From the NCBI GenBank assembly GCA_963828165.1, contig CAWHDR010000005.1:160001-224000 (forward strand): a stretch of 64,000 nt of DNA, written 5' to 3'. This stretch comes from an uncultured Chloroflexia bacterium. Lineage in GTDB: Bacteria; Chloroflexota; Limnocylindria; Limnocylindrales; CSP1-4. Positions 660-38,235 of this stretch are shown piece after piece; positions within the stretch are counted from its first letter, which is position 1, and each line of letters starts with the position of its first letter. A program made the position numbers and the translations under genes. The notes beneath the pieces were generated by a model, which was not told the DNA's origin, did not search any database, and was given only the letters and a program-made list of their open reading frames with translations.

Positions 660-1645
660 GGCCCGTCGCCCCGGCGCGCGCGCGGATGCGCATCGCGGTA
701 GGCCGCCGCCAGGCGACCGGGCGATACGTGCGTGTAGATCTGGGTCGTCGCCAGGTTCTCGTGTCCGAGGAGCTCCTGGACGACGCGCAGGTCCGCGCCG
801 CCGTCGAGCAGGTGCGTCGCGAAGGAATGCCGAAGCGTGTGTGGCGATACGCCCTGGGGGAGGCCGGCTCGGCGGCACAGTCGGTCGAGCCGGTACCGCA
901 GACCGCGGACCCCGAGCGGCGCGCCGTGGTGGTTCAGGAAGACCTCGGTCGGCGCCGGGTCGGCGTCGCCGGCCGGGCGGCGGTCCAGGAGGATCGGGCG
1001 GCCGTGGTCCAGGTACGTTGCGAGGGCCGCGAGGGCCGGCCGGCCCAACAGGCCGATGCGTTCCTTGCGGCCCTTGCCGATCACCCGGATCTCGCCGCGG
1101 CGCGGGTCCAGTGAGCCGAGATCCGCGGCGGCGAGCTCGCTGATCCGCAGGCCCGCGGCATAGGCGGTCTCGACGAGCGCTCGGTCGCGCAGCGCCAGCG
1201 CGATGGCGACGGCGATCCGATCCGGGCTGGCCGCCTCGGCTTGGGTCAGCTCCGCATCCACCGCGGCGAGCAGGCGGTCGACCTGGTCGACCTCCAGGAC
1301 CCGCGGCAGCCGCCGCGGCAGCCGCGGCGTCGCGATGGCGCCCCATGGGTCACCGGCTGCGAGACCCTCACGGGCGGCCCACCGGTGGAAGGACCGGATC
1401 GCTGCCAGCCGCTGGGCGACGGTCGTCCGTGCCGCGGTGCTCCCGAGATGCGCCAGGTACGCGCGCAGGTCCGAGCGCGCGGGACGCGCCCAGTCCACGC
1501 CACGTTCGAGGAGCCAGGAGAGGTACGCCCCGACGGCCGTGGCATAGGCCCGGATCGTGTGCGGTGAGGCGTCGCGAGCCGCGAGCGAGCGGAGGAACCG
1601 CTCGAGCGCCGGATGGGTCGCAGGATCGCCCGCGACCGCGCTCAC
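656..1645 (-). CDS. xerC: Tyrosine recombinase, XerC/XerD family
   Basis: Catalytic motifs GLRISEL, GKGRKER, HTLRHSFATH, LLGHENLATTQIY; directly downstream of topA. Confidence 0.9.
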   Translation of the reverse strand: MSAVAGDPATHPALERFLRSLAARDASPHTIRAYATAVGAYLSWLLERGVDWARPARSDLRAYLAHLGSTAARTTVAQRLAAIRSFHRWAAREGLAAGDPWGAIATPRLPRRLPRVLEVDQVDRLLAAVDAELTQAEAASPDRIAVAIALALRDRALVETAYAAGLRISELAAADLGSLDPRRGEIRVIGKGRKERIGLLGRPALAALATYLDHGRPILLDRRPAGDADPAPTEVFLNHHGAPLGVRGLRYRLDRLCRRAGLPQGVSPHTLRHSFATHLLDGGADLRVVQELLGHENLATTQIYTHVSPGRLAAAYRDAHPRARRGDGP

Positions 1646-22992: not shown

Positions 22993-24900
22993 TCAGGCCG
23001 GCTGCGGGTTCGGCTCCGGGATGGGCTGCCCTGGGCCGACGACGGCCGGGCTGCCGTGGCCATCGTCCTTGGGCGGCATGTCGGAGAACAACGCCTCGAA
23101 GCCCTCGCTGTCGACGGTCTCCTCCGCAACGAGCTTCTCGGCGAGGGCCACGAGCCGATCGCGGTGGGTCGTGAGGACCTCCGTCGCCCGCTCGTATGCC
23201 TTGTCGATGATCGCCCGGACCTCTTCGTCGATGACGCGTGCGACGTCGTCGCTGTAGTTGCGCTGCTCGCCGATCTCGCGGCCCAGGAACACCAGCTCGT
23301 CGCGCTTCCCGAAGGACAGCGGGCCGAGCTTGTCGCTCATGCCGAACTCGGTGACCATGCGCCGCGCGAGGTCGGTCGCTTTCTCGATGTCGTTGCTGGC
23401 GCCGGTCGTCGTGTCGCCGAAGATCATCCGCTCCGCGACGTTGCCGGCCAGCAGGCCCGCGATCTTGTCCTCGAACTCGGTCTTGGACTGGAGATACCGG
23501 TCTTCCCGGGGCAGGGCCATCGTGTAGCCGAGGGCCATGCCGCGACTGATGATGGTGACCTTGGCGACCGGGTCGCACTTGGGCAGGATCCGCTGGACGA
23601 CCGCGTGACCACCTTCGTGGTAGGCGATGATCGCCTTCTCCGCGTCCGAGATGACCCGCGACTTGCGCTCCGGGCCGGCGATGATCCGCTCCAGCGCCTC
23701 CTGGAACTCGGACATGCCGATGACCTTCTTGTTGCGGCGAGCCGACAGGATGGCGGCCTCGTTGACGAGGTTCGCGAGGTCGGCGCCGGAGAAGCCCGGC
23801 GACTGGCGCGCGACGCCTTCGACATCGACGCCCTTGTCGAGCGGCTTGCCCTTGGTATGGACGCGCAGGATCTCGGTCCGGCCACGGATGTCGGGGCGGT
23901 CGAGGATGACCTGGCGGTCGAAGCGGCCCGGGCGCAGGAGGGCTGGGTCCAGGACGTCCGGCCGGTTCGTGGCGGCGACGACGATCACGTTCGTGTTCGT
24001 GTCGAAGCCGTCCATCTCGACCAGGATCTGGTTGAGGGTCTGCTCGCGCTCGTCGTGCGAGCCGCCCAGACCGGCGCCACGCTGGCGGCCGACCGCGTCG
24101 ATCTCGTCGACGAAGACGATGCACGGCGAGTTGCGCTTGGCCTGGTCGAACAGGTCGCGCACGCGGCTCGCGCCGACGCCGACGAACATCTCGACGAACT
24201 CAGAGCCGGAGATGCTGAAGAACGGCACGCCGGCCTCACCCGCGACGGCGCGAGCCATCAGGGTCTTGCCGGTGCCGGGGGGCCCGACGAGCAGCACACC
24301 ACGCGGGATGCGCGCGCCCAGGGAGTTGAACTTCTCCGGGAACTTCAGGAACTCCACGACCTCCTGGAGCTCCGTCTTGGCCTCGTCGACGCCCGCCACA
24401 TCGGCGAACGTGACGACAGTCTTGTTGCCGAGGAACATGCGCGCCCGGCTCTTGCCGAAGCTGAGGGCTTGATTGTTGGTGCCCTGCGCCTGTCTCATCA
24501 TGAAGAAGATGAAGCCGCCGATGATGAGCAGCGGCAGGACCGCCGTCAGCAAGAGGCCGAGCCACGACGTGTCTGGCGCGGGGGTCGCCTTGAAGATGTC
24601 GGGGCTCAGGGTCAGGTTCGTGCCCTCGGCCGCCTTCTGCATGTCGCCCCACACGTCGGTCAGGATCGTGGGAACGGTGACGGTATAGGTCTGGGCCGTG
24701 GAGCCGGTCTTCTTGACCGTCAGGGTCGTGCCCTGCTGGGTGACCTCCGCGACCTCGTTAGCGGCGACATCGCCAAGGAATTTGGAGTAGCCGGTGGTGA
24801 CGGGCTGCGAGCTGGACGTGATCCACGTGAACAGCAGCGCAGCCGTCCCGACGACGAGGACCAGCATCACGATGCCGTTCCGGAAGAACTTCGGGTTCAA
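22993..24900 (-). CDS. ftsH: ATP-dependent zinc metalloprotease FtsH
   Basis: Two TM helices, [40 protein letters not shown]. Confidence 0.97.
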
Positions 24901-25103
24901 GAGGGGGGCCTCCGGGTGTGAGTGGGGCGACGATCGAGCGTCGCTCCGTGGGGCGAGTATAGCGTCGGACCCGAACCGGGCCCCCTGACGGATGTCCGGC
25001 CGTCAATCAACCCTACGGACGGATAGCAGGCGCGGATGGCGACGCCGTCGAGCGTGAAGAAAACGAAATGACCCGTCGATCGCCGGTGAGGGATGTCGTG
25101 GGT

Positions 25104-25178
25104 TGGTAGCGGAGGGCGGATTCGAACCACCGACCAAGGGCTTATGAGTCCCCTGCTCTACCACTGAGCTACTCCGCC
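25104..25178 (-). tRNA. tRNA-Met (CAT), elongator type, CCA encoded
   Basis: GGCGGAGTAGCTCAGTGGTAGAGCAGGGGACTCATAAGCCCTTGGTCGGTGGTTCGAATCCGCCCTCCGCTACCA folds as a cloverleaf; G2-C71 and C3-G70 favour Met. Confidence 0.95.
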
Positions 25179-25188
25179 GCTGCTATCA

Positions 25189-25217
25189 AGCTTATCGAGC
25201 GTGATGCGGGGCGGCAA
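25189..25217 (-). promoter_or_regulatory. Sigma70-type promoter of the intact tRNA-Met
   Basis: TTGCCG-N17-TAAGCT ending 10 nt upstream of G1; homologous to the promoters at 32059 and 33498. Confidence 0.65.
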
Positions 25218-25415
25218 ACGCCGAGAAACGGTGGCCGCGGCGACCGGCGAGTGGTCATCGCGGAAAGAGGCCGGAAATAGGATCGACCGTCTTGACGGCC
25301 GACCGCCCTGTCAAGCACCCACCGCTTCGGTGGACGTGATGGGCTAAGGTTCTGGCCTATTGCCCTTGCCTCGTCCTGGTCGACCGTCACTGCGGGACTG
25401 CCCGGAGGTTGGAGA

Positions 25416-25814
25416 TTGGCACCGCGGGTTCTCATCGCCGACGACGAGCGGCACATCCGGACGCTCATCGAGCAGTCGCTCGAGGAGCTCGAGGATGAAG
25501 GGGTCGAGCTCCTCACCGCATCCGACGGGGCGGAGGCCCTCGCGGAGGCTGCGCGGCATCGGCCTGAGCTGATCTTCCTCGACATCATGATGCCGAACCA
25601 GAACGGCTTCGAAGTCTGCCGGGCGATCAAGCAGGAGCTCGGCCTCCGCGACAGCGTCGTCGTGATGCTCACCGCCAAGGGGCAGGCCTACGATCGCGAG
25701 CAGGGACTCCTCGCCGGAGCCGATCAGTACATCACGAAGCCGTTCGACCCTGACGAGCTTCTCGAGATTGCGCGAGCCGTTCTCGACCTCCCCGAGGGAG
25801 CATCACGGATATGA
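25416..25814 (+). CDS. Single-domain response regulator (receiver)
   Basis: VLIADDE, FLDIMMP, MLTAKG, KPF. Confidence 0.9.
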   Translation: MAPRVLIADDERHIRTLIEQSLEELEDEGVELLTASDGAEALAEAARHRPELIFLDIMMPNQNGFEVCRAIKQELGLRDSVVVMLTAKGQAYDREQGLLAGADQYITKPFDPDELLEIARAVLDLPEGASRI

Positions 25815-26869
25815 AGCGCCCGCTGGTCGCGAGCCGCAGCCTTCCCCTCCTCGCCGTCGTCATCCTCTCGGCCTGCTCCGCCGTCGGCGCTCCGGGCCCG
25901 ACGGCCTCGGAGGCCATCAAGGTCGCCGTGATGATCGACTCTGGGAGCGAACGGGACAAATCGTTCAACGAGTACACCCTGCGGGGCGCTCGTGAGGCTG
26001 CCGAGGAGCTGGGCTTCGAGTTCGCCTACGTGACCCCGCAGTCCGCGACGGACTACGCGGATACGCTCGAGAGCATGATCCTCGCCGAGGATCCGGACCT
26101 GGTCGTCACCGTCGGGTTTCGGATGGGCGAGGCGACAGCTCTCGCGGCGCGGGCTCATCCCGACCTCCGGTTCGCCATCGTGGACAACGAATACCAGCCG
26201 GGACTGGGGTGTCCCGAGACCGCCGCGGACTGCTATGCGGACGGCGGGCTGTCGACGGTCACCAGCCTGATGTTCGCCGAGGACGAGGTGGCCTACCTCG
26301 CCGGCACGCTGGCTGGCTGCATGACCGAGACCGGGACGGTGGCGACTGTGGCCGGGGTGGAGATCCCGCCGGTCGTGCGACTGCTCACCGGCTTCGAGAG
26401 CGGCGCCCGCTCGGTACGACCAGACGTCGTGACGCTTCACGAGTACATCCCGGACTTCAACGATCCGGACACGGGCAAGGCGGTCGCCCAGGGCTTCATA
26501 CGCCAGAACGCCGACGTGATCTTCGGCGCGGGCGGCAACACCGGGAACGGGGGCCTGTTGGCGGCCAAGGAGGCCGGCGTGATGGCGGTCGGCGTGGACG
26601 TGGACCAGTACCACACCTACCCGGAGGTGCGCGAGGTCCTGCTCACATCCGCCGCGAAGAACATGGACGTGGCGGCCGCCACCGCCGTGCGCGACTTCGC
26701 CGCCGGCCGACTGGAGGCGGGTATCCGCCTTTCGACCCTCGCGAATGGAGGCATCAGCCTCGCGCCGTACCACGACTGGGAGGACCGCATCCCCCAGGAT
26801 TGCAAGGACATGGTCATAGAGGCCGAGGCCGCGGTGAAGGCCGACCCGACGATCACCGGCGGCAAATGA
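25811..26869 (+). CDS. BMP/PnrA-family substrate-binding lipoprotein
   Basis: Lipobox LSAC, DKSFN, FAEDEVAYLAG, ADVIFGAGGNTG, VGVDVDQ, LTSAAKNMD. Confidence 0.9.
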   Translation: MKRPLVASRSLPLLAVVILSACSAVGAPGPTASEAIKVAVMIDSGSERDKSFNEYTLRGAREAAEELGFEFAYVTPQSATDYADTLESMILAEDPDLVVTVGFRMGEATALAARAHPDLRFAIVDNEYQPGLGCPETAADCYADGGLSTVTSLMFAEDEVAYLAGTLAGCMTETGTVATVAGVEIPPVVRLLTGFESGARSVRPDVVTLHEYIPDFNDPDTGKAVAQGFIRQNADVIFGAGGNTGNGGLLAAKEAGVMAVGVDVDQYHTYPEVREVLLTSAAKNMDVAAATAVRDFAAGRLEAGIRLSTLANGGISLAPYHDWEDRIPQDCKDMVIEAEAAVKADPTITGGK

Positions 26870-29800
26870 GCGGAGCCTCGCCACCACCGCCACCGGGCGC
26901 GATCCCGGCGGCGGGCGACGGAGTGCCGCCACGCGATCCGATGGGCCCGTTCGTCGTCGTTGGATCATTGGCCGTCGCGGTGGCCACGGTCTGGATGGGG
27001 CTCGCCCTGGTCGGCTCACTCGAGACAGGACAGAGCCAGTACGCCGCGCTGGCCGCGATCACGGCGACCATACTTGCCACCAACCTGGCCGCCCTGCTTC
27101 TCGCGCGTCGCCAGGACCGAGCCGGACCGGCGATCTGGCTGATTGCCGTCAGCCAGCTGGTCGGGGCGGTCGCGGTCTCATTCGTCGTCGCCGACGTGTG
27201 GCTCCTCGGCCTGTTCCTCCTGGCGATCGTGCCCCTCGAGATCGCCACCGCCGACCGACCGCAACGCATCCCCCTGGCAACAATTCTCGCCCTGTTGGGA
27301 GCGGCGAGCCTGGTGGGCGTCGAGCTGCTCGATCCCCCTGGCCGACTGCCCCTATTCGCCGAAGAACCGGGGGTCATGGCACTCCCTGCTGTGGTCCTGA
27401 TCGCCCACAGCGCCAGCCTCGCCTTCCTCTTCTGGCGACTGCGCCTGAGAGGCGACGCGCCCCACCATGTCCGACTCGACCTGGCGACACAGCTTCCGCT
27501 CGTGCTGACCGGCATCTCGGTCGTGTCGATCCTCCTGGTCTTCGGAGTCCTGATGTTCCAGATCCGCGATTTACAGATCGGGGAGGTCGAGCGGACGTTC
27601 CAGACCCTTGCCGACATCCAGGCCGAGCGCGTGGGGAACGCGCTCGATGAGCAGATTCAGATCCTGATCTCGCTGGGCAGGCGAAGTGCTGTCCTCTTGG
27701 ACGCGCTCGTCGCGGCGAACGCCGTATACCCGGATGCGGAGGCCGACCGGCAAGCCCTGCTCGCGGAGCGCCAGCGACAGTGGCAGTCGGAGCCGGACAC
27801 CAGCGAGTTCGTCCTGCGCTACCGAAACAGTCCGGAGGCCCTCGAGCTGAGCCGGTTCCGTGGGGAGGATCTGCTGCACAACAACGTCCTCCTCACCGAC
27901 CGCGAGGGAGGCCTCGTGGCTGCTCAGGGTGAGAAGCCATCGCGGTTCTCCTTCCAGGACCAGGGGTGGTGGCGAGCCGCCTGGGACGACGCGCAGGGCA
28001 GCGTCTACCTAGGCGACCTCAACCTGAACATCGAGGCCGGTACGGCCTCGATGTTCATCGCGGTCGGCGTGCTCAATCCGCAGACGAACGAGACGATCGG
28101 CGTGCTCTTCTCGCGCTATGACCTGAGCGGGGTCCAGCGTGACATCGCGATCGCCAACGACCAGCTCGACGCGGCCGTGCACCTGCTGTCTTCGGATGCG
28201 CTCCTGATCGCCGGACCCAACCCGGAGGCGGTCGGCCTGCCCGCTGCGATCGAGCTCCCCCAGGACGGAACGGGGGCGACCGATCCCGAGCCGACATCGG
28301 ACGTCGTGGCTCGGGCACCGCTGACGACGACCGGCGTGGTCCATCGGGATGCCCTGCGGACGCTGGGATGGCGGATCTCCGTCAGCGACTCTCAGGAGAA
28401 TGCATTGGCCGAGGTGACCCGCTCGACCGAAGTGGCGGCCCTCGTGGGGCTGCTCGCAATCGCGCTCGGAGTGATGGCCGCCACCGCCGCCGCGCGCCCG
28501 ATCACCCGACCGATCGAGGCCCTCACCGCGACCGCGTCGGCCATCGCAGCGGGCGACCTCGACCAGCGGGCCAGCCCGGCGGGCCCGGTCGAGCTGACGA
28601 CCCTCGCCGAAGCGTTCAATACGCTGACGGCTCGTCTGCGGTCCCTGATCAGCGGCCTGCAGGACGAGGTCGCGCAGCGAACGAGCCAGCTCCAGGCGCG
28701 CGTGGAGCAGCTCGCTTCCCTCAACCGGATCACCCAGACCGTCTCCTCGGTGCACGACCTCAAGACCGCTCCGCCGGTGGTTGCGAAAGAGCTCGTCGAG
28801 TTGTTTGACGCTCAATACAGCGGCATCGCTCTGCTGGACGGCATCCCGCTGCTGGACGGCAATCGAGCCGCGCTCAGCGTCGTCGCGGAGTACGTCCGAC
28901 CCGGCACGACAGCGGACGCCGGCGCGCTGACCCGGCTCATCACGGACAATGCCCTGTCGACACACTCGATCACAACAGGACGCTCGTTTGTCGTTGCCAC
29001 GCACGTGGACCCCCTCGCCGCCCCAGTCCGGGATCTTCTCGCGGAGCTGGGGACCACGTCGCTCATGGTTGTCCCGCTCCTCTCCCGCGGAGCGGTCATC
29101 GGTATCCTTGCCATTGCCGCGGACTCGGCTGACCGCGAGTTCACGGCGAACGAGGTGGCGCTTGCCGAGACGGTGGCCGGCCAGATCGCAAGTGCCGTCG
29201 AGAACTCGCGCTTGTTTGCCGAGATGCAGGACGCTAAGGAGGCGGCGGTCGCCGCGAACGAGGCCAAGAGCGTCTTCCTCACGAACGTCAGCCACGAGCT
29301 TCGGACGCCGCTCACCTCGGTCGTCGGGTTCGCGAAGATCATCCGCAAGCGGCTCGAGGAGCGAGTGTTCCCGCTGATCGAGGACGACGATCGTGGTGCG
29401 GGCCGCGCGGTCGAGCAAATTCGGGCCAACGTGGACATCATCGTCGCCGAGGCCGAGCGACTGACGACGCTCATCAACAACGTCCTTGACCTTGCCAAGA
29501 TCGAGGCGGGCAAGGTGGATTGGCAGATGGAGCCGGTCCGTGCGAACACGATCGTCGATCGCGCCATCGCGGCCACCGGACCGCTCTTCGAGGAGAAGGG
29601 ACTTCGCCTCGTGCGCGAAGTCGCCGATGACGTCCCGGAGGTCATCGGCGATCGGGACAGCCTGATCCAGGTGGTGATCAACCTGCTGTCCAACGCCGTG
29701 AAGTTCACGAGCGAGGGGATCGTGACCTGTCGGGTCCGGAGGCATGACGCGGAAGTGGTCATCAGCGTGACGGACACCGGCGCGGGGATCGCGGAGGCCG

Positions 29801-30060
29801 ACCAGCCGCGGGTCTTCGAACAGTTCGCGCAGGTAGGTGACACGCTCACGGGTAAGCCGTACGGTACGGGTCTCGGGTTGCCCATCTGCAAGCAGATCGT
29901 CGAACGCCACGGTGGCCGCATCTGGGTCGAGAGCAACCTCGAGGCCGGCAGCACCTTCTCGTTCACCCTCCCGATCCCCAAGCACGGAGAAGACGAGTTC
30001 GAGCCGGGCGCCGAAGGTAAGGCGCCACCGCCAGTCGCTCGCGCGGCGCGGCTTCGATGA
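26866..30060 (+). CDS. Multi-TM sensor histidine kinase (TM bundle, Cache-like, HAMP, GAF, HisKA, HATPase)
   Basis: ATG at 26866 overlaps the BMP stop; SHELRTPL, NLLSNAVKF, DTGAGI, GTGLGL; HAMP ITRPIEALT. Confidence 0.92.
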   Translation: MSGASPPPPPGAIPAAGDGVPPRDPMGPFVVVGSLAVAVATVWMGLALVGSLETGQSQYAALAAITATILATNLAALLLARRQDRAGPAIWLIAVSQLVGAVAVSFVVADVWLLGLFLLAIVPLEIATADRPQRIPLATILALLGAASLVGVELLDPPGRLPLFAEEPGVMALPAVVLIAHSASLAFLFWRLRLRGDAPHHVRLDLATQLPLVLTGISVVSILLVFGVLMFQIRDLQIGEVERTFQTLADIQAERVGNALDEQIQILISLGRRSAVLLDALVAANAVYPDAEADRQALLAERQRQWQSEPDTSEFVLRYRNSPEALELSRFRGEDLLHNNVLLTDREGGLVAAQGEKPSRFSFQDQGWWRAAWDDAQGSVYLGDLNLNIEAGTASMFIAVGVLNPQTNETIGVLFSRYDLSGVQRDIAIANDQLDAAVHLLSSDALLIAGPNPEAVGLPAAIELPQDGTGATDPEPTSDVVARAPLTTTGVVHRDALRTLGWRISVSDSQENALAEVTRSTEVAALVGLLAIALGVMAATAAARPITRPIEALTATASAIAAGDLDQRASPAGPVELTTLAEAFNTLTARLRSLISGLQDEVAQRTSQLQARVEQLASLNRITQTVSSVHDLKTAPPVVAKELVELFDAQYSGIALLDGIPLLDGNRAALSVVAEYVRPGTTADAGALTRLITDNALSTHSITTGRSFVVATHVDPLAAPVRDLLAELGTTSLMVVPLLSRGAVIGILAIAADSADREFTANEVALAETVAGQIASAVENSRLFAEMQDAKEAAVAANEAKSVFLTNVSHELRTPLTSVVGFAKIIRKRLEERVFPLIEDDDRGAGRAVEQIRANVDIIVAEAERLTTLINNVLDLAKIEAGKVDWQMEPVRANTIVDRAIAATGPLFEEKGLRLVREVADDVPEVIGDRDSLIQVVINLLSNAVKFTSEGIVTCRVRRHDAEVVISVTDTGAGIAEADQPRVFEQFAQVGDTLTGKPYGTGLGLPICKQIVERHGGRIWVESNLEAGSTFSFTLPIPKHGEDEFEPGAEGKAPPPVARAARLR

Positions 30061-31733
30061 GCCCGCCGGTGCAGCCCCCCGCGCAGCGAGGGGCGGCGAG
30101 CGCGCGAGCCGATGGTATGAACGCGAAGCACAGGCGCCCACGACGGGATGAGCCGGTAGCGCTGCGGCGCGTGCTGGACCGTCGGACGATCGAGGCGTTC
30201 CTGGCGGGGGCCCTTGGAGCCCAGTCCTCGGCAGAGGTCGTCCTGGTCGACACCGACGGCACTCCGTTCGCCGGCGGTGGCAAGTGGCTGACGCCCCGCA
30301 TCTCGCAGGTGCGCCGCGCCCTCGCGGAGGCAACCGACGCCGTGTCCGTGGCCGGGATGTCCGTTCGTCCCCTCCACGCGCATTCTCGACTCGTGGGCGG
30401 GCTCGTCGTCGAGGGTTCTGCGGCCGACGACGTCGTCGACCTGCTCCAGGACGCGCTCGGCATCATCGTGGGTCAGGCGCTCGACGCGCGGGACCTCGGA
30501 CAAGAGACGTTGGACCGGTACCGCGAGATCAACGTCCTGTACCGACTGGGCGAGACCGTCGGTGCGCTGCTCGATGCCGACGAGATCCCCGGTTTGCTGC
30601 TGTACGAGGCCGAACATGCGATCAAGGCCGACGCCACGGCCGTGCTGCTCGAACCGGGCGAGTCGCGGCGGGTGGCCGCCAGTGCGGGAACGGCGCGGTT
30701 GTCCCAGGAGATGATCGAAACATCGTCGCGCCTGATCGATCAGGTCGTTGAGATGGGCCAGCCGAGCATCATGGCGTCACCGGCGATCGCATCGGCGCAC
30801 CTCGGTTCGCTGCTTTGCGTACCCATCCGGGCCCGGGACAGGCCGATCGGGGTCGTCCTGCTCGGCCGGCGCAAGGGGCGGGCCGTGTTCAGCGCCGGCG
30901 AGGAGAAGCTGCTGCTCGCCATCGCCACCGAGGGCGGCGTCGCGTATGATCGCGCGCTCCTCCTCGACGAGCGGGTGCAGCGCGAGCGTCTCGAGGAGGA
31001 GCTCTCGGTCGGCCGTCGCATCCAGCTCAGCCTGCTACCCGCGTCGTCCCCACACCACGCCGGCTGGGAGTTCGCTGCCGTCTACCGCGCAGCCCGGCAG
31101 GTTGGTGGCGACTTCTACGACTTCATCGAGACGCCTGAGGCGCCCGGAACGCTCGGGCTGATCATCGGGGACGTGACGGGTAAGGGGGTGCCGGCCGCCC
31201 TGTTGATGGCGTCCACCCGGGCGATCCTACGGGCGTCTTCCGCCGGGCGACCGCCGCCATCCGTCATTCTCGAACGCACCAACGAACAGCTCCTCCGCGA
31301 CGGCCGCGCCGGCCTGTTCGTGACGGCGTTGTACGGCAGCCTGGACCTCATCACCGGGGATCTCGTGTTCGCCAGCGGCGGTCACGATCCGCCGCTGTGG
31401 ATCCGCGGCGACGCGCGGCAGTCGCGCCTGTTGACCACGCGCGGCACGCTCCTCGGCGCCTTCGGCGCGATCAGACTCGAGGATCGGCACATCCGACTTG
31501 CTCCAGGCGACACGCTCGTCCTCTACACCGACGGCGTCACCGAAGCGCGCGACCGCGTGGGACGACTCTTTGGCGAGCGTCGCCTCAGGGCAAACCTCAC
31601 CGCGAATGCCGCCGGGAGCGCGGAGGAGACCGCCCAGGCGGTGCTCAACGCGGTATCGGACTTCGTCGGCAACATTCCGCCCTCCGACGACCTGACGCTC
31701 GTCGTCGTCAGGCGGCAGGGCGCGCATCCCTGA
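30057..31733 (+). CDS. GAF plus SpoIIE/PP2C serine phosphatase (RsbU-like)
   Basis: IQLSLLP, VGGDFYD, GDVTGKGVPAAL, YTDGVTEA, DDLT. Confidence 0.92.
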   Translation: MSPPVQPPAQRGAASARADGMNAKHRRPRRDEPVALRRVLDRRTIEAFLAGALGAQSSAEVVLVDTDGTPFAGGGKWLTPRISQVRRALAEATDAVSVAGMSVRPLHAHSRLVGGLVVEGSAADDVVDLLQDALGIIVGQALDARDLGQETLDRYREINVLYRLGETVGALLDADEIPGLLLYEAEHAIKADATAVLLEPGESRRVAASAGTARLSQEMIETSSRLIDQVVEMGQPSIMASPAIASAHLGSLLCVPIRARDRPIGVVLLGRRKGRAVFSAGEEKLLLAIATEGGVAYDRALLLDERVQRERLEEELSVGRRIQLSLLPASSPHHAGWEFAAVYRAARQVGGDFYDFIETPEAPGTLGLIIGDVTGKGVPAALLMASTRAILRASSAGRPPPSVILERTNEQLLRDGRAGLFVTALYGSLDLITGDLVFASGGHDPPLWIRGDARQSRLLTTRGTLLGAFGAIRLEDRHIRLAPGDTLVLYTDGVTEARDRVGRLFGERRLRANLTANAAGSAEETAQAVLNAVSDFVGNIPPSDDLTLVVVRRQGAHP

Positions 31734-31894
31734 CCTTCCGCGACCGGTTTGCGCCCCAACCACGACGCAACCCGCGGACACCCGAGCGCGGCGAAGCGGG
31801 GGTTCGAGTGCGAGCGGCTGGCGCCCGATGCGGCGAGTAGACCTTCGCTCGCCGCTTGGAGGCGCGATACGGGTCCACGTTTCGAGCGGGATTC

Positions 31895-32128
31895 GGTTAT
31901 GCGCTGAATCGGAGTTATGTGCTCTTGAGTTCGTCGTCGATAGAGCCCATACCTGAGCACATTCTCGATCAGATCCCACTCAGAAAGCACAGCGGATAGA
32001 TCGGCGGGCTTATGAGTCCCCCTGCTCTACCACTGAGCTACTCCGCCGTGGCAATTCAAGATTACCGAGCGTAAACGGCCTCGGCAACCGCTGGAAATGC
32101 AGCACATAACTATCGAACAGCACATACC
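31895..32128. repeat. Junction A: conserved left arm, tRNA-Met 5' half (32006-32047), promoter (32059-32087) and right arm
   Basis: Aligns by eye with 33335-33567 and 35835-35984; tRNA part matches 25138-25178 except for one extra C in the C run. Confidence 0.92.
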
Positions 32129-32242
32129 TGTTCTCACGGATGTCAGCTTTTGCCGACGACACGGACGTACCATCAGGTGGACAGGGCACGATGTGCCATG
32201 AGCTGGCACTCGGCGATTGAGCGACCCCGGAGGGCCTCCCAG

Positions 32243-33169
32243 ATGCGAGCAATGGTGGCTGAGAGCTCGGCCCCCGGCAGGATCGCGTTGCGGGAGGTTC
32301 GGGAGCCGGTGCCGGCGCCCGGTGAAGTGCTCGTGGACGTGCGTGCATTCTCGATCAATCGGGGCGAGATGAGGATGCTCGGAACGGCTAACGACGGCTG
32401 GCGTCCCGGATGGGACTTCGCCGGCATCCTGCGGTCCGACGTCGAAAACGGCCTGAAAGCTGGCGCCCGGGTGGTCGGCATCCGGCGAGGCGGGAGTTGG
32501 GCCGAGCAGGTGGCGGTTCACGAAGGATGGATCGCCGAGTTGCCTGGTGGAGTCTCCTTTGCTCAAGGGGCGACGCTACCAACGGCCGGCCTGGCAGCCC
32601 TGCGCATGCTGAGAATGGGACCATCGATCCTCGGTCGCCGAGTCTTGGTGACGGGGGCCTCGGGCGGTGTCGGTCGGTTTGCCATCCAGCTGGCCCACCT
32701 CGGTGGCGCGGAGGTAACGGCGATGGTCAGCAGCCGATCGGCGCGGGCCGGGGGCCTTCGCCAGCTCGGTGCCGATGACGTGGTCTCGGACGTCGACCAG
32801 CTCCGGGGTCGTTTCGACCTCATCCTCGAGTCGGTGGGAGGCGAAACGCTCGGCCGACTCGTCACCAAAGTCGACGCCCGAGGGACGCTGATCATGTTCG
32901 GCAACACCTCCGACGAACCAACCACGTTCAACGTCCGCGACGTCTACAACGATGCCCTCGTCCGTCTTCAGGGGTTCGAGTTGTTCTTCGGTGGCGATCC
33001 GTTCGGTCGCGACCTCGGGTACCTCGCCTCACTTGTGGCCGACGACAAGCTCGATCCTCAGCTCGGTGCTGAGCTGCCCTGGGAGGAGATCACCGGGGCG
33101 ATGGATCGGCTGCAGAATTGGGACGTCGCCGGGAAGGTCGCCCTCACGCTCGGCGAACCCGCGGGTTGA
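32243..33169 (+). CDS. MDR-superfamily (zinc-binding dehydrogenase / quinone reductase-like) oxidoreductase
   Basis: PGEVLVDV, INRGE, PGWDFAG, VLVTGASGGVG, GKVAL; ATG after GGAGG. Confidence 0.88.
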   Translation: MRAMVAESSAPGRIALREVREPVPAPGEVLVDVRAFSINRGEMRMLGTANDGWRPGWDFAGILRSDVENGLKAGARVVGIRRGGSWAEQVAVHEGWIAELPGGVSFAQGATLPTAGLAALRMLRMGPSILGRRVLVTGASGGVGRFAIQLAHLGGAEVTAMVSSRSARAGGLRQLGADDVVSDVDQLRGRFDLILESVGGETLGRLVTKVDARGTLIMFGNTSDEPTTFNVRDVYNDALVRLQGFELFFGGDPFGRDLGYLASLVADDKLDPQLGAELPWEEITGAMDRLQNWDVAGKVALTLGEPAG

Positions 33170-33334
33170 GCGTCAGTCGACGTACTGAAGAGGCACGACC
33201 AACCTGGAACCCGCCACGACATTCGAGGCCGCCGAAGCCGTCGCCGCGGCAGAACCGGGATCTTGGTTCGGGCGGACACGGTGCCAGATTACCGAGCGAC
33301 CGCTTGTGCCGTTAGGTGAGACGATGGCGAATCA

Positions 33335-33567
33335 GGTATGAGCTCTATCGGAGTTATGTGCTCTTGGCTCGACCGCCGATAGAGCCTATAAGTCACCCGA
33401 TTCGTGCTTGGGTCCCACTCGGGAAAGCACAGCGCATCGAAGAAGTGACTTATGAGTCCCCTGCTCTACCACTGAGCTACTCCGCCGTGGCAATTCAAGA
33501 TTACCGAGCGTAACCGCCTCGGCAACCGCTGCCCGTTGCAGCGCATGACTATCGAACAGCGCATGAC
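33335..33567. repeat. Junction B: left arm, tRNA-Met 5' half (33449-33486), promoter (33498-33525) and right arm
   Basis: 38-bp identity with tRNA 25141-25178; arms homologous to junctions A and C. Confidence 0.92.
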
Positions 33568-33636
33568 TCCCGACACGGTGCCAGGACGTCAGCGTCGCCC
33601 CCGGTGGACGGCGGAGGTGTGGCCTTTACCGAGTCG

Positions 33637-34368
33637 TCAGCCGGCGACGGCGAGTGTGGGCGCTTTGCGAGGCGTCGTCGCAGAGGCCGCTCGTGGCCTT
33701 GAGTCCTCAGGCCGGAACCAGCCCGGCATGTCCCGGACCAGGTCTGGATCGCCGTACAAGGCGACCGACGCATCGGCGATCGCCGAGCCCCACGTCTGAA
33801 GACCCCGCGAGATCGGATAGAGGGTCGTGGCGTCCGCCTCCACGTGGACATACCGCTCGGGTGGTAGGCCCGGATCGTCGAAGCAGATCGACGGCAGGGC
33901 GCCCCGCTCGAGCACGAGCCAGATCTTCTTGGCACGCAGCCCGCCGACCTCGAACTCGAGGACCGCGCGCCGCTCGGGCGCGGTCGACGGGTCGGCTCGA
34001 TGGGTCATCCACAACATGATCACGTCGGGATCGCGCTGCACCATCGCGGGATCCTCCGGGACCCAGCGCTCTGCCCAGCTGTGGAGCGACATGAGCGTCG
34101 GGACGAGCTGCTCGCCTGCCGGCGTGAGGCGGTGGGGTGCCGGGCGCGCCGGTGCAGAACGGCCGGTGCGCTCGATGATGCCGAGCTCCTCGAGCTTGCG
34201 CAACCGCCGCGCCAACACCGAGCGCGAGATGCTTGGAAGCGTGTCGGCCAGGGCGTTGAAGCCGAGCGACCCGTGGCTCGCCAGCTCGCGGACGATCAGG
34301 AGGCTCCAGCGGTCTCCGAGGTGTTCGACCGCCTTCGTGAAGCTGCAGTAGTCGCCTGACCCCTTCAT
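33637..34368 (-). CDS. HxlR-family winged-helix regulator with C-terminal extension (SCP2-like)
   Basis: YCSFTKAVEHLGDRWSLLIVREL, ISRSVLARRLRKLE, LTPAGEQL. Confidence 0.88.
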   Translation of the reverse strand: MKGSGDYCSFTKAVEHLGDRWSLLIVRELASHGSLGFNALADTLPSISRSVLARRLRKLEELGIIERTGRSAPARPAPHRLTPAGEQLVPTLMSLHSWAERWVPEDPAMVQRDPDVIMLWMTHRADPSTAPERRAVLEFEVGGLRAKKIWLVLERGALPSICFDDPGLPPERYVHVEADATTLYPISRGLQTWGSAIADASVALYGDPDLVRDMPGWFRPEDSRPRAASATTPRKAPTLAVAG

Positions 34369-34398
34369 GGCTACATTCTCGCACCCACGGCAAAGCGC

Positions 34399-34421
34399 AA
34401 CAGTTCTTCGCGAGAACTGTT
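34399..34421. promoter_or_regulatory. Palindromic operator, probably for the HxlR regulator
   Basis: Perfect inverted repeat AACAGTTCT-N5-AGAACTGTT between the divergent hxlR and flavoprotein genes. Confidence 0.65.
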
Positions 34422-34512
34422 CAGCTCGATGGCGGCGTGCCTATGGTCCCTCAAGAAGCGTACGGGTAGCGGCCGGTCGGACGGCGGGTGCGGCGTGCAG
34501 GAGGTCAACGAG

Positions 34513-35775
34513 ATGCAGATAACCACTTTGCCCGAATCGGTCGACACTCTGATCATCGGGGCCGGCCAGGCCGGGCTAGCGACGTCATGGATGCTGGGCG
34601 CTGCCCGCCAGGAGCACCTCGTGCTCGAGCGGCGCGACCGGCTCGGCGGAGGTTGGCAGGACCGCTGGGACGCGTTCACCCTCGTCACCCCAAACTGGAT
34701 TGCCTCGTTTCCGGGTTGGCCCTACGACGGCCCCGACCCGGACGGCTTCATGGGCCGCGATTCGATCGTCGAGCGCGTCGCCCGCTACGCGCATGTCGTC
34801 GACGCGCCGGTCGCGCTCGGGACCGCGGTCGAGCGGCTCACGCCGGCGAAAGGTGGCCCATTCCGAGTGAGGACGAATCGCGGCGACATCACCGCGCAGC
34901 GGGTCGTCGTCGCCACCGGCAGCTACCACGTCCCGCAGATTCCGCCGCCGGCTGCGCGCATCGCACCGAGAGTCACCCAGCTCCATTCGCACGACTACCG
35001 AAACGAGTCGATGCTGCCCGAGGGCGCTGTCCTCGTCGTCGGATCCGGCCAGACCGGCGTGCAGCTCGCGGAAGAGCTGTCCGACGCCGGACGCCGTGTC
35101 TACCTCTCGGTCGGGGCGGCCGGCCGAGCGCCGCGGCGGTATCGCGGGGTCGACATCTTCGGCTGGCTCGCCCAGATCGCGCGGCGGGGCCCAGAGTTCG
35201 GACTCGGCCTCCCGACGGTCGACGTGCTCCCGGACCCGAATCTGAAGTTCGCCGCCAACCCGCACGTCTCGGGACGAAATGGTGGCCACGATACGAACCT
35301 TCGGCGGTTCGCAGCGGACGGGATGCAGCTCGCCGGACGCCTCGTAGCGGCCGACGGCGAGCGCGTCACCTTCGCCGACGATCTGCCCGCGAAACTCGTC
35401 CACGCTGACCGGTTCTTCGACGATCACCTGCGGGACCTGATCGAGACCTTTATCGATAAGGCCGGCCTTGACATGCCGCCGGACGACCGCGTGCCATTCG
35501 ACTACGAGCCGCGTGCACTCACCGAGCTCGACCTGGAGAGTGCCGGGGTCTCGACGATCATCTGGGCGACCGGCTACGCCCTCGACTACGGCTGGATCGA
35601 TGCCCCGATCTTCGGCGAGCGCGGCTATCCACGGAACGAGCGTGGCGTGACCGAGATTCCCGGCCTCTTCTTCGTCGGCCTGCTCTGGCAGCACACCCAA
35701 GCGTCAGCGACCCTCGTCGGGCCGGCCCTGGACGGGCCGTACGTCGCGGAGAAGTTGACGATGGCGGCTGTGTGA
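34513..35775 (+). CDS. FAD/NAD(P)-dependent flavoprotein (flavin-containing monooxygenase-like)
   Basis: IIGAGQAGL, VATG, QLHSHDYRN, VVGSGQTG, IWATGY; ATG after AGGAGG. Confidence 0.88.
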   Translation: MQITTLPESVDTLIIGAGQAGLATSWMLGAARQEHLVLERRDRLGGGWQDRWDAFTLVTPNWIASFPGWPYDGPDPDGFMGRDSIVERVARYAHVVDAPVALGTAVERLTPAKGGPFRVRTNRGDITAQRVVVATGSYHVPQIPPPAARIAPRVTQLHSHDYRNESMLPEGAVLVVGSGQTGVQLAEELSDAGRRVYLSVGAAGRAPRRYRGVDIFGWLAQIARRGPEFGLGLPTVDVLPDPNLKFAANPHVSGRNGGHDTNLRRFAADGMQLAGRLVAADGERVTFADDLPAKLVHADRFFDDHLRDLIETFIDKAGLDMPPDDRVPFDYEPRALTELDLESAGVSTIIWATGYALDYGWIDAPIFGERGYPRNERGVTEIPGLFFVGLLWQHTQASATLVGPALDGPYVAEKLTMAAV

Positions 35776-35834
35776 GTACGCGCAGTCACAGATCCATCCC
35801 GTTTCTAGGCTCGCTGGAGTGAAGGTACGGATTA

Positions 35835-35984
35835 GATATGCGCTCTATCCGAGTTATGTGCTCCAGGGTCGACCACCGATAGAGCCGATAAGTCACCCTG
35901 TTCGTGCGTGGTCCCACTCGGGAAAGCACAGCGGATAGATCGGCGGGCTATGAGTCCCCTGCTCTACCACTGAGCTACTCCGCC
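35835..35984. repeat. Junction C (outer end): left arm plus displaced tRNA-Met 5' half (35945-35984)
   Basis: Same arm; tRNA part lacks one T; followed by different DNA containing a TTGCCG-N18-TAGATT promoter (35993-36022). Confidence 0.9.
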
Positions 35985-36055
35985 GCACGTTGAATCTAAA
36001 CGAGGCGGGTCCAGAGCGGCAAACGCGGTCCCGATGGCCGACCGCCGGCGATCGC

Positions 36056-36382
36056 CTACTTGCCGGGCGCCTTGTACTTGATCGACTGGGCCTTCTCGAG
36101 CGCCGCCAGCGTCTCGTCGACGGTGAGCAGCACGGTCGTCTCGAACGAGCTCAGGGCTCCGCCCGCGCCGATGGCGACGGCGGCCGCGGCCATCGACACG
36201 TTGTCGGGGGCTTCCCAGAGGTTGTAGGCATCGTGGTCGCCAAAGGCGTACCAGAAGCCGTGCAGCTTGCCGCCCACCGATTCGATGTATTGCTGGGCGG
36301 CAGCCCGTCGATCCTCGGGCTTCTTGATGAGCCGCGCCCACGTTTCCGGGGTGTAGCTGAACCGCGTCAGGTACATCGGCAT
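36056..36382 (-). CDS. GYD domain-containing protein
   Basis: MPMYLTRFSYT...IESVGGKL..FWYAFGDHD pattern. Confidence 0.82.
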   Translation of the reverse strand: MPMYLTRFSYTPETWARLIKKPEDRRAAAQQYIESVGGKLHGFWYAFGDHDAYNLWEAPDNVSMAAAAVAIGAGGALSSFETTVLLTVDETLAALEKAQSIKYKAPGK

Positions 36383-36426
36383 CGATGCCTCTCCTCTTCC
36401 TGTTTGCTGGAATGCCGGCCGACGAG

Positions 36427-38235
36427 CTAGCCCGTGCCCACCCGCGTGATGCCCACCATCCGATGGTAATGGGACACGAACACGTCCCGGTGGACCACGG
36501 CCCCAGCGGCGTTACGGACCGTCCGCGTGATCGACACGTCCTTTCCGTCGACGGGCCACTCGATGCGCTCGCTCTTCCCGCGTGGCAGGGACGACGTCTT
36601 CTGGACGGTGTCATAGCCGCCGACGACGTTGCTGACGCTGGGCCGACTCCAGGAGACGGTCCGACCGTTCGGGACGCTCCAGATCTCGAACCGGACCGTG
36701 CCCGGCGACGCGAAGGCCTTGATCAGGACCGGGTGCTTCGTGTCGTTGCGGAAGCGCATCGACTGCGATCCCGAGACCGTGGCATCCAGGCCGAGCGGAT
36801 AGCGGGTGATGTAGTACCAGTGCGGTGAACGGGTCACGATCTGGAGACCGGCTCGCGCGGCGGCATTGAAGAGCGTCGTCGAGGTGGCACAGATCCCACC
36901 CGCCAGGGCCTTGCCCTCGACCGAGTGACCGCCCACGATGGCCCCACCGAGGCGGTAGCCGGTCCGGAAGCTGACTTCGCCGATCGCGTCCCAGAAGTCG
37001 AACAGCGCCCCGGGTTGGACCACATAGCCATCGAGCCGACGCGCGGGGATCGAGATGTTCGCGGCGAACCCGTTGTGGGCACTCGGGGTGTAGTAGGTCG
37101 ACCAGCTGCCCATCAGGAGCACCATCGGTGCCTTCTTCTTCGCCTCTTCCGTCGACAGCTTCGGGGCGACCTGCATCGTCTTGACCTTGACCGCGTTGTC
37201 GGTCGCCGACCCCTCGAGCCGCGCGGCGAGCGCCGCCACGACGCCGCTGGCCGTGGCCTTCACGTCGAGCGCGCGTCCGAGCCGCGATGCCGTGACCCCG
37301 AAGACGCCACCGGCACGCGTCCGCAGGTAGCGTGCCTCGGTCGGGGCACGGTGGAGGTCCTTCGCGAAGCGCTTGACGACGGCCGGCACGCCGGCCGGAT
37401 CGAGGTTTGGCGCATAGGCCGCGCCCAGACCGTCGAACGTCATCCACATGCGGATGCGCGCCGCCCGGATCTCCCATCTCTGCTTGCCGTGGGTGAGGAC
37501 GAGCTTCGTGGCGATCCGCTCGGCGACCTCGTAGGCGCGCCGGGCGTCCGCGTCGCTGATGGCCGGGGGCACCGGGACGCTGTCAGCCGAGAAGTCGAGG
37601 GCCGCCGGCGACGCCGGATCGAGGAGGGCCGCCGTGATCGCCGGAGCGATCCCGCTCGTGTCGACTTCGACGCCGTCGACGGCCGTCGACATCGTCAGGG
37701 CCTCCCTGGTCGAGCTGACGCCGGCGTCCCGGGGCTGGCGGTATCCCCGCTCGGCGAACGCCGCCAGCTCGGCCGCGAGGCGATCCGCTTCGAAGCTCAG
37801 GAGCGTCGGCATCGAGACGGGTCGGGTCAGCTGCCGAACCCCTTCGAGCGCCTCATCGAAGCGCGTGCCATCGCGACCCACCGCAGCGGCCCGGTCGAGC
37901 ATCCCGTCGAAGTCGACCTCGCGAGCGACGACGGCGTACGGGATGACGGCGTAGCCGGTTCCCGAGCGCACGGTGACGGCCCCATCCTCGAGCTTGCCCA
38001 GCGCCGAGCCGAGCGCGAGACGGGCATCGGCGCGGGTCATGCCACCGATCGCGACGCCGCCGACCTGGACGCCCGGCAGGATCCGATCCACGTACGCCTG
38101 CCGGAACGCGATCACGCCCAAAGTCACCAGCAGGACGCCCAGCAACGCGCCGAACACGAATCCGCGGGCTGTGCGCCCCGGTCGCGGGATGCGCAGCGCT
38201 CGGACCACTGGTGCTAACGGACGGGTCACGGCCAT
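36427..38235 (-). CDS. VanW family protein with N-terminal putative peptidoglycan-binding repeats
   Basis: TM anchor, ILPGVQVGGVAIGGMT, GGICATSTTLFNAA, RSPH, GLDATV, RFRNDT. Confidence 0.87.
   Translation of the reverse strand: MAVTRPLAPVVRALRIPRPGRTARGFVFGALLGVLLVTLGVIAFRQAYVDRILPGVQVGGVAIGGMTRADARLALGSALGKLEDGAVTVRSGTGYAVIPYAVVAREVDFDGMLDRAAAVGRDGTRFDEALEGVRQLTRPVSMPTLLSFEADRLAAELAAFAERGYRQPRDAGVSSTREALTMSTAVDGVEVDTSGIAPAITAALLDPASPAALDFSADSVPVPPAISDADARRAYEVAERIATKLVLTHGKQRWEIRAARIRMWMTFDGLGAAYAPNLDPAGVPAVVKRFAKDLHRAPTEARYLRTRAGGVFGVTASRLGRALDVKATASGVVAALAARLEGSATDNAVKVKTMQVAPKLSTEEAKKKAPMVLLMGSWSTYYTPSAHNGFAANISIPARRLDGYVVQPGALFDFWDAIGEVSFRTGYRLGGAIVGGHSVEGKALAGGICATSTTLFNAAARAGLQIVTRSPHWYYITRYPLGLDATVSGSQSMRFRNDTKHPVLIKAFASPGTVRFEIWSVPNGRTVSWSRPSVSNVVGGYDTVQKTSSLPRGKSERIEWPVDGKDVSITRTVRNAAGAVVHRDVFVSHYHRMVGITRVGTG

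Follow-up and report, generated by a model that had tools for sequence, protein, structure and literature searches.

Small integrase-less units with att-type ends form a tandem array at a tRNA-Met gene of an uncultured Limnocylindria bacterium

INTRODUCTION

According to the part of PMC5704250 available to us, the concept of cis-mobilizable elements (CIMEs) covers integrase-less units that are flanked by attachment (att) sites and undergo tandem accretion in the ICESt1-related islands of Streptococcus thermophilus; CIMEs leave as part of a composite circle that is cut at the outer sites. Here, we analyzed a 64-kb stretch of DNA from an uncultured bacterium of 'Candidatus Limnocylindria' (contig CAWHDR010000005.1, positions 160,001 to 224,000; hereafter the window), in which the 5' half of a tRNA-Met(CAU) gene recurs and delimits three units of cargo. 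The genome, named G000 in this study, is a metagenome-assembled draft of 6 contigs and 3.3 Mb that is 88% complete. We put a probability of roughly 0.6 on the reading that the array consists of three non-autonomous, CIME-like integrative cassettes, stacked at tRNA-Met(CAU) by a Xer-like integrase that crosses over at the anticodon loop.

The array fits the structural definition of CIMEs in tandem accretion, and mobilization in cis is one candidate route. Like CIMEs, the units keep attL/attR-type sites, have no integration or transfer genes and stand in tandem with related elements at one target gene, and integrase-bearing relatives use the same att site (in genome G084, and at tRNA-Met in G018, G065, G031 and G022). 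Three features set the units apart from CIMEs: they are very small, at 1.3-6.9 kb; they make up, across many species, one family that is coherent in sequence and has a conserved P' arm of its own; and their target is a tRNA 5' half and not the 3' end of a gene. The autonomous relative also differs, being an integrative element and not an integrative and conjugative element (ICE), with no conjugation genes seen.

Islands that target tRNA genes, including those with crossover in the anticodon loop, were reportedly classified by Williams in 2002. This classification is cited in PMC6563490 and PMC1635311, as far as the excerpts of both papers go, and the former calls the 5'-distal region of a tRNA gene a 'considerably less frequent' integration target, citing Zhao and Williams (2002). 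Our array shares with anticodon-loop islands the direct repeat of a tRNA part at the far end of each unit, with identity ending at the loop, and the way in which successive insertions would push older units outward. It differs in that the orientation is reversed, so that the element would supply the 5' half and a promoter-like block, and in that no integrase gene lies in the G000 array, such genes being present in some relatives only. The tycheposon islands of Prochlorococcus likewise adjoin tRNA genes and carry partial tRNAs between elements; earlier material is displaced inward by incoming elements, remnants are found and the bulk of the island DNA is without an integrase (bioRxiv 10.1101/2020.12.28.424599, in the sections accessible to us). 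The same sections give tycheposons a size of 10-20 kb, an integrase and usually a replication module, none of which we found in the G000 units, and describe the integrase-less island material as lacking clear boundaries, whereas the units here keep both conserved arms. What is new relative to CIMEs and tycheposon islands is the reversed tRNA orientation, the small unit size, and the retention of both arms on integrase-less units across many species.

Two further systems invite comparison. Integrons have an intI-type recombinase gene adjacent to attI, and their attC sites are imperfect palindromes that act as folded single strands. The array shares with them a single recombination platform at which small units hold accessory genes of diverse kinds, and toxin-antitoxin (TA) units recur in arrays of the family. 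An earlier, preliminary description of the window had likened the array to an integron, which it is not: the platform lacks an intI, no attI adjoins an integrase gene, the nearest recombinase is of Xer type and 24 kb away, the arms have no attC-like fold (RNAalifold, 34 arms), and each unit has a double-stranded attP-like module of ~250 bp with its own tRNA half. Integrative mobile elements exploiting Xer (IMEX) are recombinase-less elements that use the host XerCD at dif. Here, too, the units have no recombinase and stand in tandem at one site, and the cognate enzyme family is Xer-like; the differences are the tRNA site, the absence of a dif-like match in G000 and the element-borne integrases of relatives.

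The preliminary description had also not recognized the arrangement as a described system. Novelty in that sense is not supported, given CIMEs (PMC5704250), the partial-tRNA arrays of tycheposons (bioRxiv 10.1101/2020.12.28.424599) and 5'-side tRNA integration (PMC6563490), each as far as the accessible text extends. A search within a limited literature collection, covering cis-mobilizable or integrase-lacking tandem elements and Limnocylindria, returned no description of this particular family, and an equally limited search returned no described mobile elements of the Limnocylindria lineage.

RESULTS AND DISCUSSION

The 5' half of tRNA-Met delimits three units

ARAGORN predicted two tRNA genes in the window, one of which is the intact tRNA-Met(cat) at 25104-25178 on the minus strand. 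Between 24900 and 36300 this gene was the sole Rfam match at E ≤ 1 (65.6 bits), and direct reading of the sequence agreed. In a repeat search, the 5' half of the tRNA (38 nt, from the anticodon loop to +1) appeared four times, at 25143-25180, 32012-32049, 33451-33488 and 35949-35986, with 79-100% identity among the copies. The spacings of 6869, 1439 and 2498 nt bear out the three cargo units of about 6.9, 1.4 and 2.5 kb that had been proposed. A second family, consisting of three copies of an 84-nt repeat (31889-31972, 33328-33411 and 35828-35911; 69-85% identity), corresponds to the arm that lies directly on the anticodon-loop side of every extra half. At all four junctions, read directly, tRNA similarity breaks off at the anticodon loop (plus strand, TTATGAG); the loop where tRNA identity ends is CTTATGAG in three of three displaced G000 copies and in the aligned arms of other genomes. 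The four 5' halves and the three arms had been reported before; the repeat search and the direct reading confirmed them, and the earlier coordinates are accurate within a few bases.

A block of ~45 nt past the tRNA 5' end was common to all four copies (repeat families D3 and D7). Copies 2 and 3 ran on into a second conserved stretch, an inverted repeat of the arms (families I7 and I8), which we named the P' arm. The preliminary account of the junctions was thus correct for the halves and the arms, and missed the P' arm after copies 2 and 3. Every unit has a tRNA half on both sides and a P arm at its distal end, and units 2 and 3 also have a P' arm.

From the tRNA gene outward, the order of parts is as follows. 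Directly upstream of the tRNA is the conserved block (25179-25221, minus strand), which appears in families D3 and D7 and in an alignment of upstream regions and has no P' sites after it. Unit 1 ends with a P arm of subtype B (31889-32008, plus strand; site motifs at 31897, 31915 and, inverted, 31943), joined to copy 2 of the tRNA half (32009-32047, minus strand), which has one additional C. Unit 2 begins with a P' arm (32048-32130, plus strand), in which a promoter-like block precedes inverted sites at 32100-32109 and 32118-32127, and ends with a P arm of subtype A (33328-33448, plus strand; sites at 33336, 33354 and, inverted, 33382) joined to copy 3 (33449-33486, minus strand). Unit 3 repeats this layout, with a P' arm at 33487-33570 (plus strand; promoter-like block, then inverted sites at 33539-33548 and 33557-33566), a P arm at 35828-35947 (plus strand; sites at 35836, 35854 and, inverted, 35882) and copy 4 (35948-35984, minus strand), in which one loop T is missing. 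The units lie upstream of the tRNA gene and repeat its 5' half and upstream block; they do not lie downstream with the 3' part. On the model proposed below, the 3' half of the tRNA gene (25104-25140) would be native, the 5' half (25141-25178) would have been imported by unit 1, and copy 4 would be the original chromosomal half.

Matches to a 249-nt junction query were confined to this locus in the 3.3-Mb assembly. Repeats of this kind might arise by mis-assembly or by a recent local duplication, and G000 is a draft in 6 contigs assembled from a metagenome. We give this explanation a negligible probability. The G000 arms are 84%, 93% and 85% identical to the nearest arm in another genome and 69-80% identical to their array-mates; each is therefore closer to arms found elsewhere, and the array stems from separate arrivals and not from local duplication. 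Moreover, more than 100 independent assemblies show this layout too, and neither chance nor mis-assembly accounts for the repeats.

Repeated site motifs occupy the P and P' arms

The motif TTATGNGCTS, allowing at most one mismatch, had 13 matches in the window, all 13 of them within P or P' arms; these sequences had themselves supplied the motif, so that the count documents their layout without testing it independently. Every P arm contains two direct copies of the site 18 bp apart and one inverted copy 28 bp beyond, and each P' arm contains two inverted copies 18 bp apart. The site type in the P arms is TTATGNGCT. A loose form of the motif had 257 matches in the 3.3-Mb assembly, and clusters of at least three matches within 300 bp occurred at the three junctions only. 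In integrase-less units, the P' type is composed of the promoter-like block and AGCACATAAC-N8-AGCACATA, with the sequence AGCACATAACTATCGAACAGCACATACC.

An alignment of 34 arms from many genomes showed conserved blocks with variable spacers between them. We considered the arm as a structured RNA and rejected this: Rfam gave the tRNA alone at E ≤ 1, and RNAalifold returned no supported structure on the 34 arms (-4.9 kcal/mol, covariation term 0.01, one of ten predicted pairs with a double change). Block-wise conservation together with the lack of a supported fold fits protein-binding DNA.

The block at 25179-25221 (minus strand) contains the hexamers TTTGCC and TAAGCT, separated by an 18-nt gap, and every version of the upstream block has, by eye, a TTGCC-type and a TAnnnT hexamer 17-18 nt apart. 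Because a scan with the strict sigma-70 consensus left the block unflagged, we regard it as a putative promoter of the tRNA gene.

The unit family varies among relatives and is widespread

In the genus, the arm was present in 11 of 131 genomes, with one to three units in each. In six of them (G026, G030, G020, G118, G109 and G149) the intact tRNA and an arm with a displaced half are 1.25-6.7 kb apart; there are two units in G083 and two arms in G084. The cargo of these units is unrelated from genome to genome. It includes a luciferase-like fragment, an adenylate cyclase with a RibD_C protein, a Ser/Thr kinase, a two-component pair, a LuxR regulator with a flavin oxidoreductase, a Phd/HicA-like pair, a PEP-utilising enzyme and a Fic protein. 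Among 29 tRNA loci of 3 kb (L024-L052), seven (L028-L031, L035, L037 and L052) represent the empty site, with ftsH and VanW both beside the tRNA in the order ftsH-tRNA-VanW. The variation in unit number and content and the empty sites, which had been suggested as a check on the array, are thus both found among relatives.

A pattern scan of species-representative genomes yielded 31 arm-bearing stretches, which belong to metagenome-assembled genomes (MAGs) of Chloroflexota / 'Candidatus Limnocylindria', apart from one contig labelled Eisenbacteria and one labelled Methylomirabilota. Most of the 38 true arms in the representative-genome and earlier loci are joined to a full half; the exceptions are four stumps of ~20 nt, one half cut earlier, one arm without a half, and one tRNA-Lys(UUU)-like half. 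A metagenome scan found at least 120 arm-bearing stretches, of which 80 loci (339 kb) were analyzed. These 80 contigs carry 90 arms, with at least two arms on 12 of them. Of the 90 arms, 67 lead into a full tRNA-Met 5' half, 2 into a half with indels, 14 into a core-only stump and 2 into something else, and 5 reach the contig end. There are 27 complete arm-half-P' junctions in this set, and the half-to-half spacings range from 1.26 to 6.26 kb (n = 17, median 2.4 kb). Across the genus, the representative genomes and the metagenomes, the integrase-less units with att-type ends at one tRNA therefore make up a real and widespread family. The arm pattern had no match in viral contigs, and none of the 111 arm-bearing loci L076-L186 showed the terminal repeats expected of free circular forms.

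At the core-only junctions, the half next to the arm is cut short after ~18-20 nt (TTATGA(G)TCCCCTGCT), where unrelated sequence takes over, in many cases GTATCT or GAATC. They occur at L092, L098:4453, L099 and L104:4887 and in 14 metagenome contigs, including L109, L113, L120, L132, L141 and L148. Such junctions may correspond to the minimal core or to a secondary target, or may belong to a different type of element. In L088 (5531-5700), the arm is joined to the 5' half of a tRNA-Lys(UUU)-like gene with the loop CTTAAAAG on that strand; the arm family may therefore use a second, similar tRNA. The contigs with the two outlying labels are L076 and L080, in MAGs titled Eisenbacteria and Methylomirabilota, while L078, with which L080 shares a cassette, is a Chloroflexota contig. 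The labels could reflect mis-binning or spread beyond the phylum.

Integrases occur beside the same arms in relatives

Pfam identified no integrase, transposase or relaxase domain in the eight large open reading frames (ORFs) of the units. A custom hidden Markov model (HMM) of tyrosine recombinases, which was built from ten sequences and detected three positive-control loci, had no match in the six frames of 24900-36100. With three family integrases as queries, tblastn at E ≤ 10 gave chance-level matches alone inside the array. On these searches we rejected integrase remnants in the G000 units, and the earlier statement that the cargo includes no integrase, transposase or relaxase held for these ORFs and frames.

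G000 has three tyrosine recombinase genes. Two are XerC/XerD-like and lie 22-25 kb and ~65 kb from the tRNA, at distances kept in seven genomes; the third (C1:454497) is 40% identical to the integrase P0001 described below and has no tRNA or site cluster nearby. The XerC-like gene inside the window (656-1645, minus strand) is 24 kb from the array and syntenic in relatives, and the second tRNA of the window, tRNA-Gly(GCC) (5042-5110, plus strand), is also near the window start.

An integrase next to the same arm, another check that had been suggested, was found in relatives. In G084, the partial integrase P0001 is on the same 12-kb contig as two arms and 3.3 kb from one of them; the order on the contig is integrase, arm with half, then an integrase-less unit. 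In G022 (L065:9427-10363), a frameshifted integrase split over at least three frames abuts the intact tRNA-Met, and either a pseudogene or indel errors in the assembly would account for it. Matches to the P0001 family at E ≤ 1e-20 were obtained in 41 of the 131 genomes of the genus, and eight of ten fetched loci have a tRNA gene immediately upstream of the integrase, in divergent orientation. This tRNA is tRNA-Met in the fetched loci of G018, G065 and G031, as in G022. Elsewhere it is tRNA-Gly(UCC) (G098, locus L068; G030, L072; G031, L073), tRNA-Lys(CUU) (G074, L069) or tRNA-Arg(CCG) (G085, L070). The G098 element has a displaced tRNA-Gly 5' half (positions 1-39) at 6 kb as its far boundary, and its arm shares with the Met arm the boxes GCGCTGTGCT and GCACGAATCGG as well as TTAT..GC-type sites.

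The family integrases are 314-340 aa long and have a SAM-like N domain and a catalytic domain, without a separate arm-binding domain. They score as Xer-like in NCBIfam, below the cut-offs, and are 36-38% identical to actinophage integrases. All intact integrases with known context adjoin an intact tRNA. No conjugation module was seen in any relative examined. Judged from sequence, a simple integrase family that targets the 5' side of tRNA genes exists in the genus and shares the arm architecture, and its members presumably bind the TTATGNGCT sites.

The units might instead be moved by host Xer-type recombinases, in the manner of IMEX, or by an enzyme that has escaped recognition, and not by the P0001 family. 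The P0001 family itself scores Xer-like, the two Xer-type genes are conserved at their distances from the tRNA in seven genomes, the units outnumber the element integrases, and the arm sites resemble what we take to be the XerC-side arm of dif. We nevertheless consider this explanation quite improbable. The target is a tRNA and not dif, and no dif-like inverted site was found in G000 with either the pattern GCNCATAAN{5,9}TTATGNGC or the looser CATAA-N6-8-TTATG. Integrase-bearing elements with homologous arms exist, and no recurrent unknown gene accompanies the arms among the top ORF clusters, the commonest clusters being a TA pair, GYD, HxlR, a hydrolase and ERCC4.

A model for arrival and stranding of the units

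We propose that the circular form of a unit would have a composite attP of ~250 bp, in which a P arm, a core and a P' arm are combined. The P arm (~115 bp) would contribute three TTATGNGCT-type sites, two direct and 18 bp apart and one inverted; the core would be the tRNA 5' half from the anticodon loop to +1; and the P' arm (~85 bp) would consist of the promoter-like block and two further inverted sites. A Xer-like tyrosine integrase of 314-340 aa would catalyse the crossover within or beside the resident tRNA's anticodon loop. The incoming unit would donate a new 5' half and promoter-like block, leaving the tRNA intact, and the former 5' half would be displaced beyond the unit and joined to its P arm. 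Repeated arrivals at the intact tRNA would push older units outward, and the array would grow. On this model the internal junctions should be attP-like, which agrees with those observed.

Integrase-less units would enter or leave only through the enzyme of a sibling, presumably acting in trans, or within a composite circle cut at the outer sites. Once the helper departs, the units would be stranded, which would explain the many units, the few integrases and the position of integrases only beside the intact tRNA. Aberrant excision of chromosomal flank (cf. G118, below) is a possible route to new cargo and to P'-less units such as unit 1. The analysis shows how the array is built, how far the family has spread, that empty sites and integrase-bearing relatives exist and that the arms are conserved; the binding of these sites by this integrase family, the exact crossover position and the continued movement of the units are inferred.

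A broader reading would see an integron-like, tRNA-anchored cassette system in 'Ca. Limnocylindria', with a portable attP of ~250 bp that brings a spare tRNA-Met 5' half and its promoter, rare and transient Xer-like helpers that insert and shuffle the integrase-less cassettes at the anticodon loop, stranding stabilized by TA pairs and cargo acquired by aberrant excision of neighbouring chromosomal DNA, as suggested by the G118 unit. We regard this as possible but rather doubtful. The lineage it refers to comprises uncultured Chloroflexota of soil and sediment.

If the units are active, they provide a compact and abundant route by which one to four accessory genes move within a large uncultured soil lineage, the cargo observed including signalling systems, redox enzymes, regulators and TA pairs. 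The system is also a clear example from nature of the reversed tRNA orientation, where promoter and 5' half have to come with the element, and the ~250-bp module with its five repeated sites is a candidate minimal substrate for a simple Xer-like integrase. The excess of units over very few integrases bears on how integrase-free island material accumulates beside tRNA genes.

Arm conservation and the case against active units

The identity of the non-coding arms to those of G000 exceeded the ftsH nucleotide identity in nine of ten comparable genomes, and far exceeded that of VanW: 92% versus 85% in L061 (VanW, 73%), 91% versus 82% in L082 and 92% versus 81% in L104. Conservation above the level of ftsH makes it probable that the arms remain in use. 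By a strict two-site test the integrase-less P' type follows 17 of 53 half copies, and inspection by eye adds five. In none of these cases does an integrase or an integrase stump come after it, which fits a non-autonomous lineage still selected for its ends. Both results, and the absence of tyrosine-recombinase similarity within the G000 units, speak against regarding the units as fossils, that is, as decayed remains of autonomous integrative elements that lost their integrase and are now fixed as inert DNA. Such an origin is the standard one proposed for CIMEs (PMC5704250, in the part available), and we judge it unlikely here in view of these results.

Several observations agree with fossils or otherwise weigh against active cassettes. 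No cognate integrase was found in G000 (88% complete). G118 and G155 have integrase N-terminal stumps after displaced halves, which shows that decay does occur, and the integrase of G022 contains frameshifts. Some arms end in truncated halves or in core-only stumps (14/90 metagenome arms and 4/38 arms of the representative-genome loci), unit 1 has no P' sites, and L079 carries a composite arm-half-P' junction with degenerate ends. The P' region beside the G065 and G031 integrases has another sequence than the integrase-less P', with the same kind of site, and the putative promoter escaped the strict consensus scan. No tyrosine recombinase was found in the 80 analyzed metagenome contigs, and only one of the 31 representative-genome stretches had one; with recombinases this scarce in arm-bearing stretches, the proposed helper is rare relative to its supposed clients.

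The cargo and the read data add to these points. At E ≤ 1e-60, the phosphatase of unit 1 was not matched in any of the 130 other genomes of the genus. Homologues of the unit 3 oxidoreductase occur in 41 of these 130 genomes at no more than 64% identity, and in the three that were compared (G030, G149 and G020) they are 150-170 kb from tRNA-Met. None of the G000 cargo was found in the other fetched arrays. Public sequencing runs contained at most 14% of the sampled words of 30500-36500 in any run, and within that coverage no circles, empty-site reads or alternative junctions of the array were seen. Contigs from four runs were short pieces, mostly of unit 3 (33460-35800), with ~90-99% identity (97-99% in run X6); they included many low-support joints with sides of 20-40 nt, none at att sites. 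The uncovered parts, such as unit 2, are uninformative, and these data speak neither for nor against excision.

Exchange by homology alone would offer another account of an array with few integrases. RecA-type swapping after DNA uptake could use the modules and the ftsH/tRNA flank as homology, with no site-specific recombinase at work today. It is in keeping with arrays that share modules and flanks only and differ in cargo, with the rarity of integrases near arms, and with the GC content of the units (0.65-0.71), which is similar to that of the flanks, as expected for exchange among relatives, and is by itself uninformative. Exchange by homology leaves unexplained the exact break of tRNA identity at the anticodon loop in every copy, the block-wise conservation of the five site motifs with variable spacers, and the core-only stumps. 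We therefore hold exchange by homology to be improbable, and return to integrase-mediated stacking of non-autonomous cassettes as the preferred reading.

Cargo, flanking genes and recurrent units

Unit 1 (25179-32008) encodes, by Pfam and all on the plus strand, a response regulator (25416-25814), a Bmp-type binding protein (25811-26869), a HAMP/GAF/HisKA/HATPase kinase (within 26209-30060) and a GAF-SpoIIE (PP2C) phosphatase (30057-31733). The Bmp-type ORF (25811-26869) and the kinase ORF (26209-30060) overlap by 660 nt in different frames, and the kinase probably starts near 26866. Unit 2 (span 32048-33448) encodes a zinc-type alcohol dehydrogenase / quinone oxidoreductase (32150-33169, plus strand; Pfam ADH_zinc_N and ADH_N). 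Unit 3 (span 33487-35947) encodes an HxlR-type regulator (33637-34368, minus strand) and a flavin-dependent monooxygenase / pyridine-nucleotide oxidoreductase (34429-35775, plus strand), both assigned by Pfam. Domains of an integrase or of a primase/helicase replication module were found neither among the unit ORFs nor in a scan of ten recurrent ORF clusters.

The conserved flank next to the 3' end of the tRNA is ftsH (22993-24900, minus strand; Pfam), which adjoins the tRNA in all relatives examined. The chromosomal flank on the other side of the array (35985-38235, minus strand) consists of an upstream block, a GYD-domain gene (36056-36382) and a VanW-domain gene (36427-38235), as annotated with Pfam; in empty-site relatives VanW is directly beside the tRNA. 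In G118 (L059:8947-15648), the tRNA-proximal unit comprises a native-type upstream flank, a 2006-aa ORF with DUF11 repeats, a C-terminal VanW fragment and an arm, and in G026 a DUF11 gene and VanW are ordinary neighbours of the array. We hypothesize that the G118 unit is chromosomal flank captured by aberrant excision in another host.

Some cassettes are shared between genomes, by either vertical or horizontal descent. An arm with its cargo is 98.7% identical over 678 nt between L079:7324-8000 and L096:6433-7110, from two species-representative genomes, the L079 copy being without the adjoining half and the proximal part of the arm. The cassette shared by L078 and L080 is 87% identical. The most recurrent cargo is a Phd-like / HicA-like TA pair (18 ORFs at 12 loci), which often lies in the tRNA-proximal unit, and one TA unit is common to L062 (11164-12032), L087, L091, L104 (2746-3615) and L105 with 82-89% identity. 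An ORF for an ERCC4-domain nuclease also recurs, at L157:2073-2966 and at six other arm-bearing loci.

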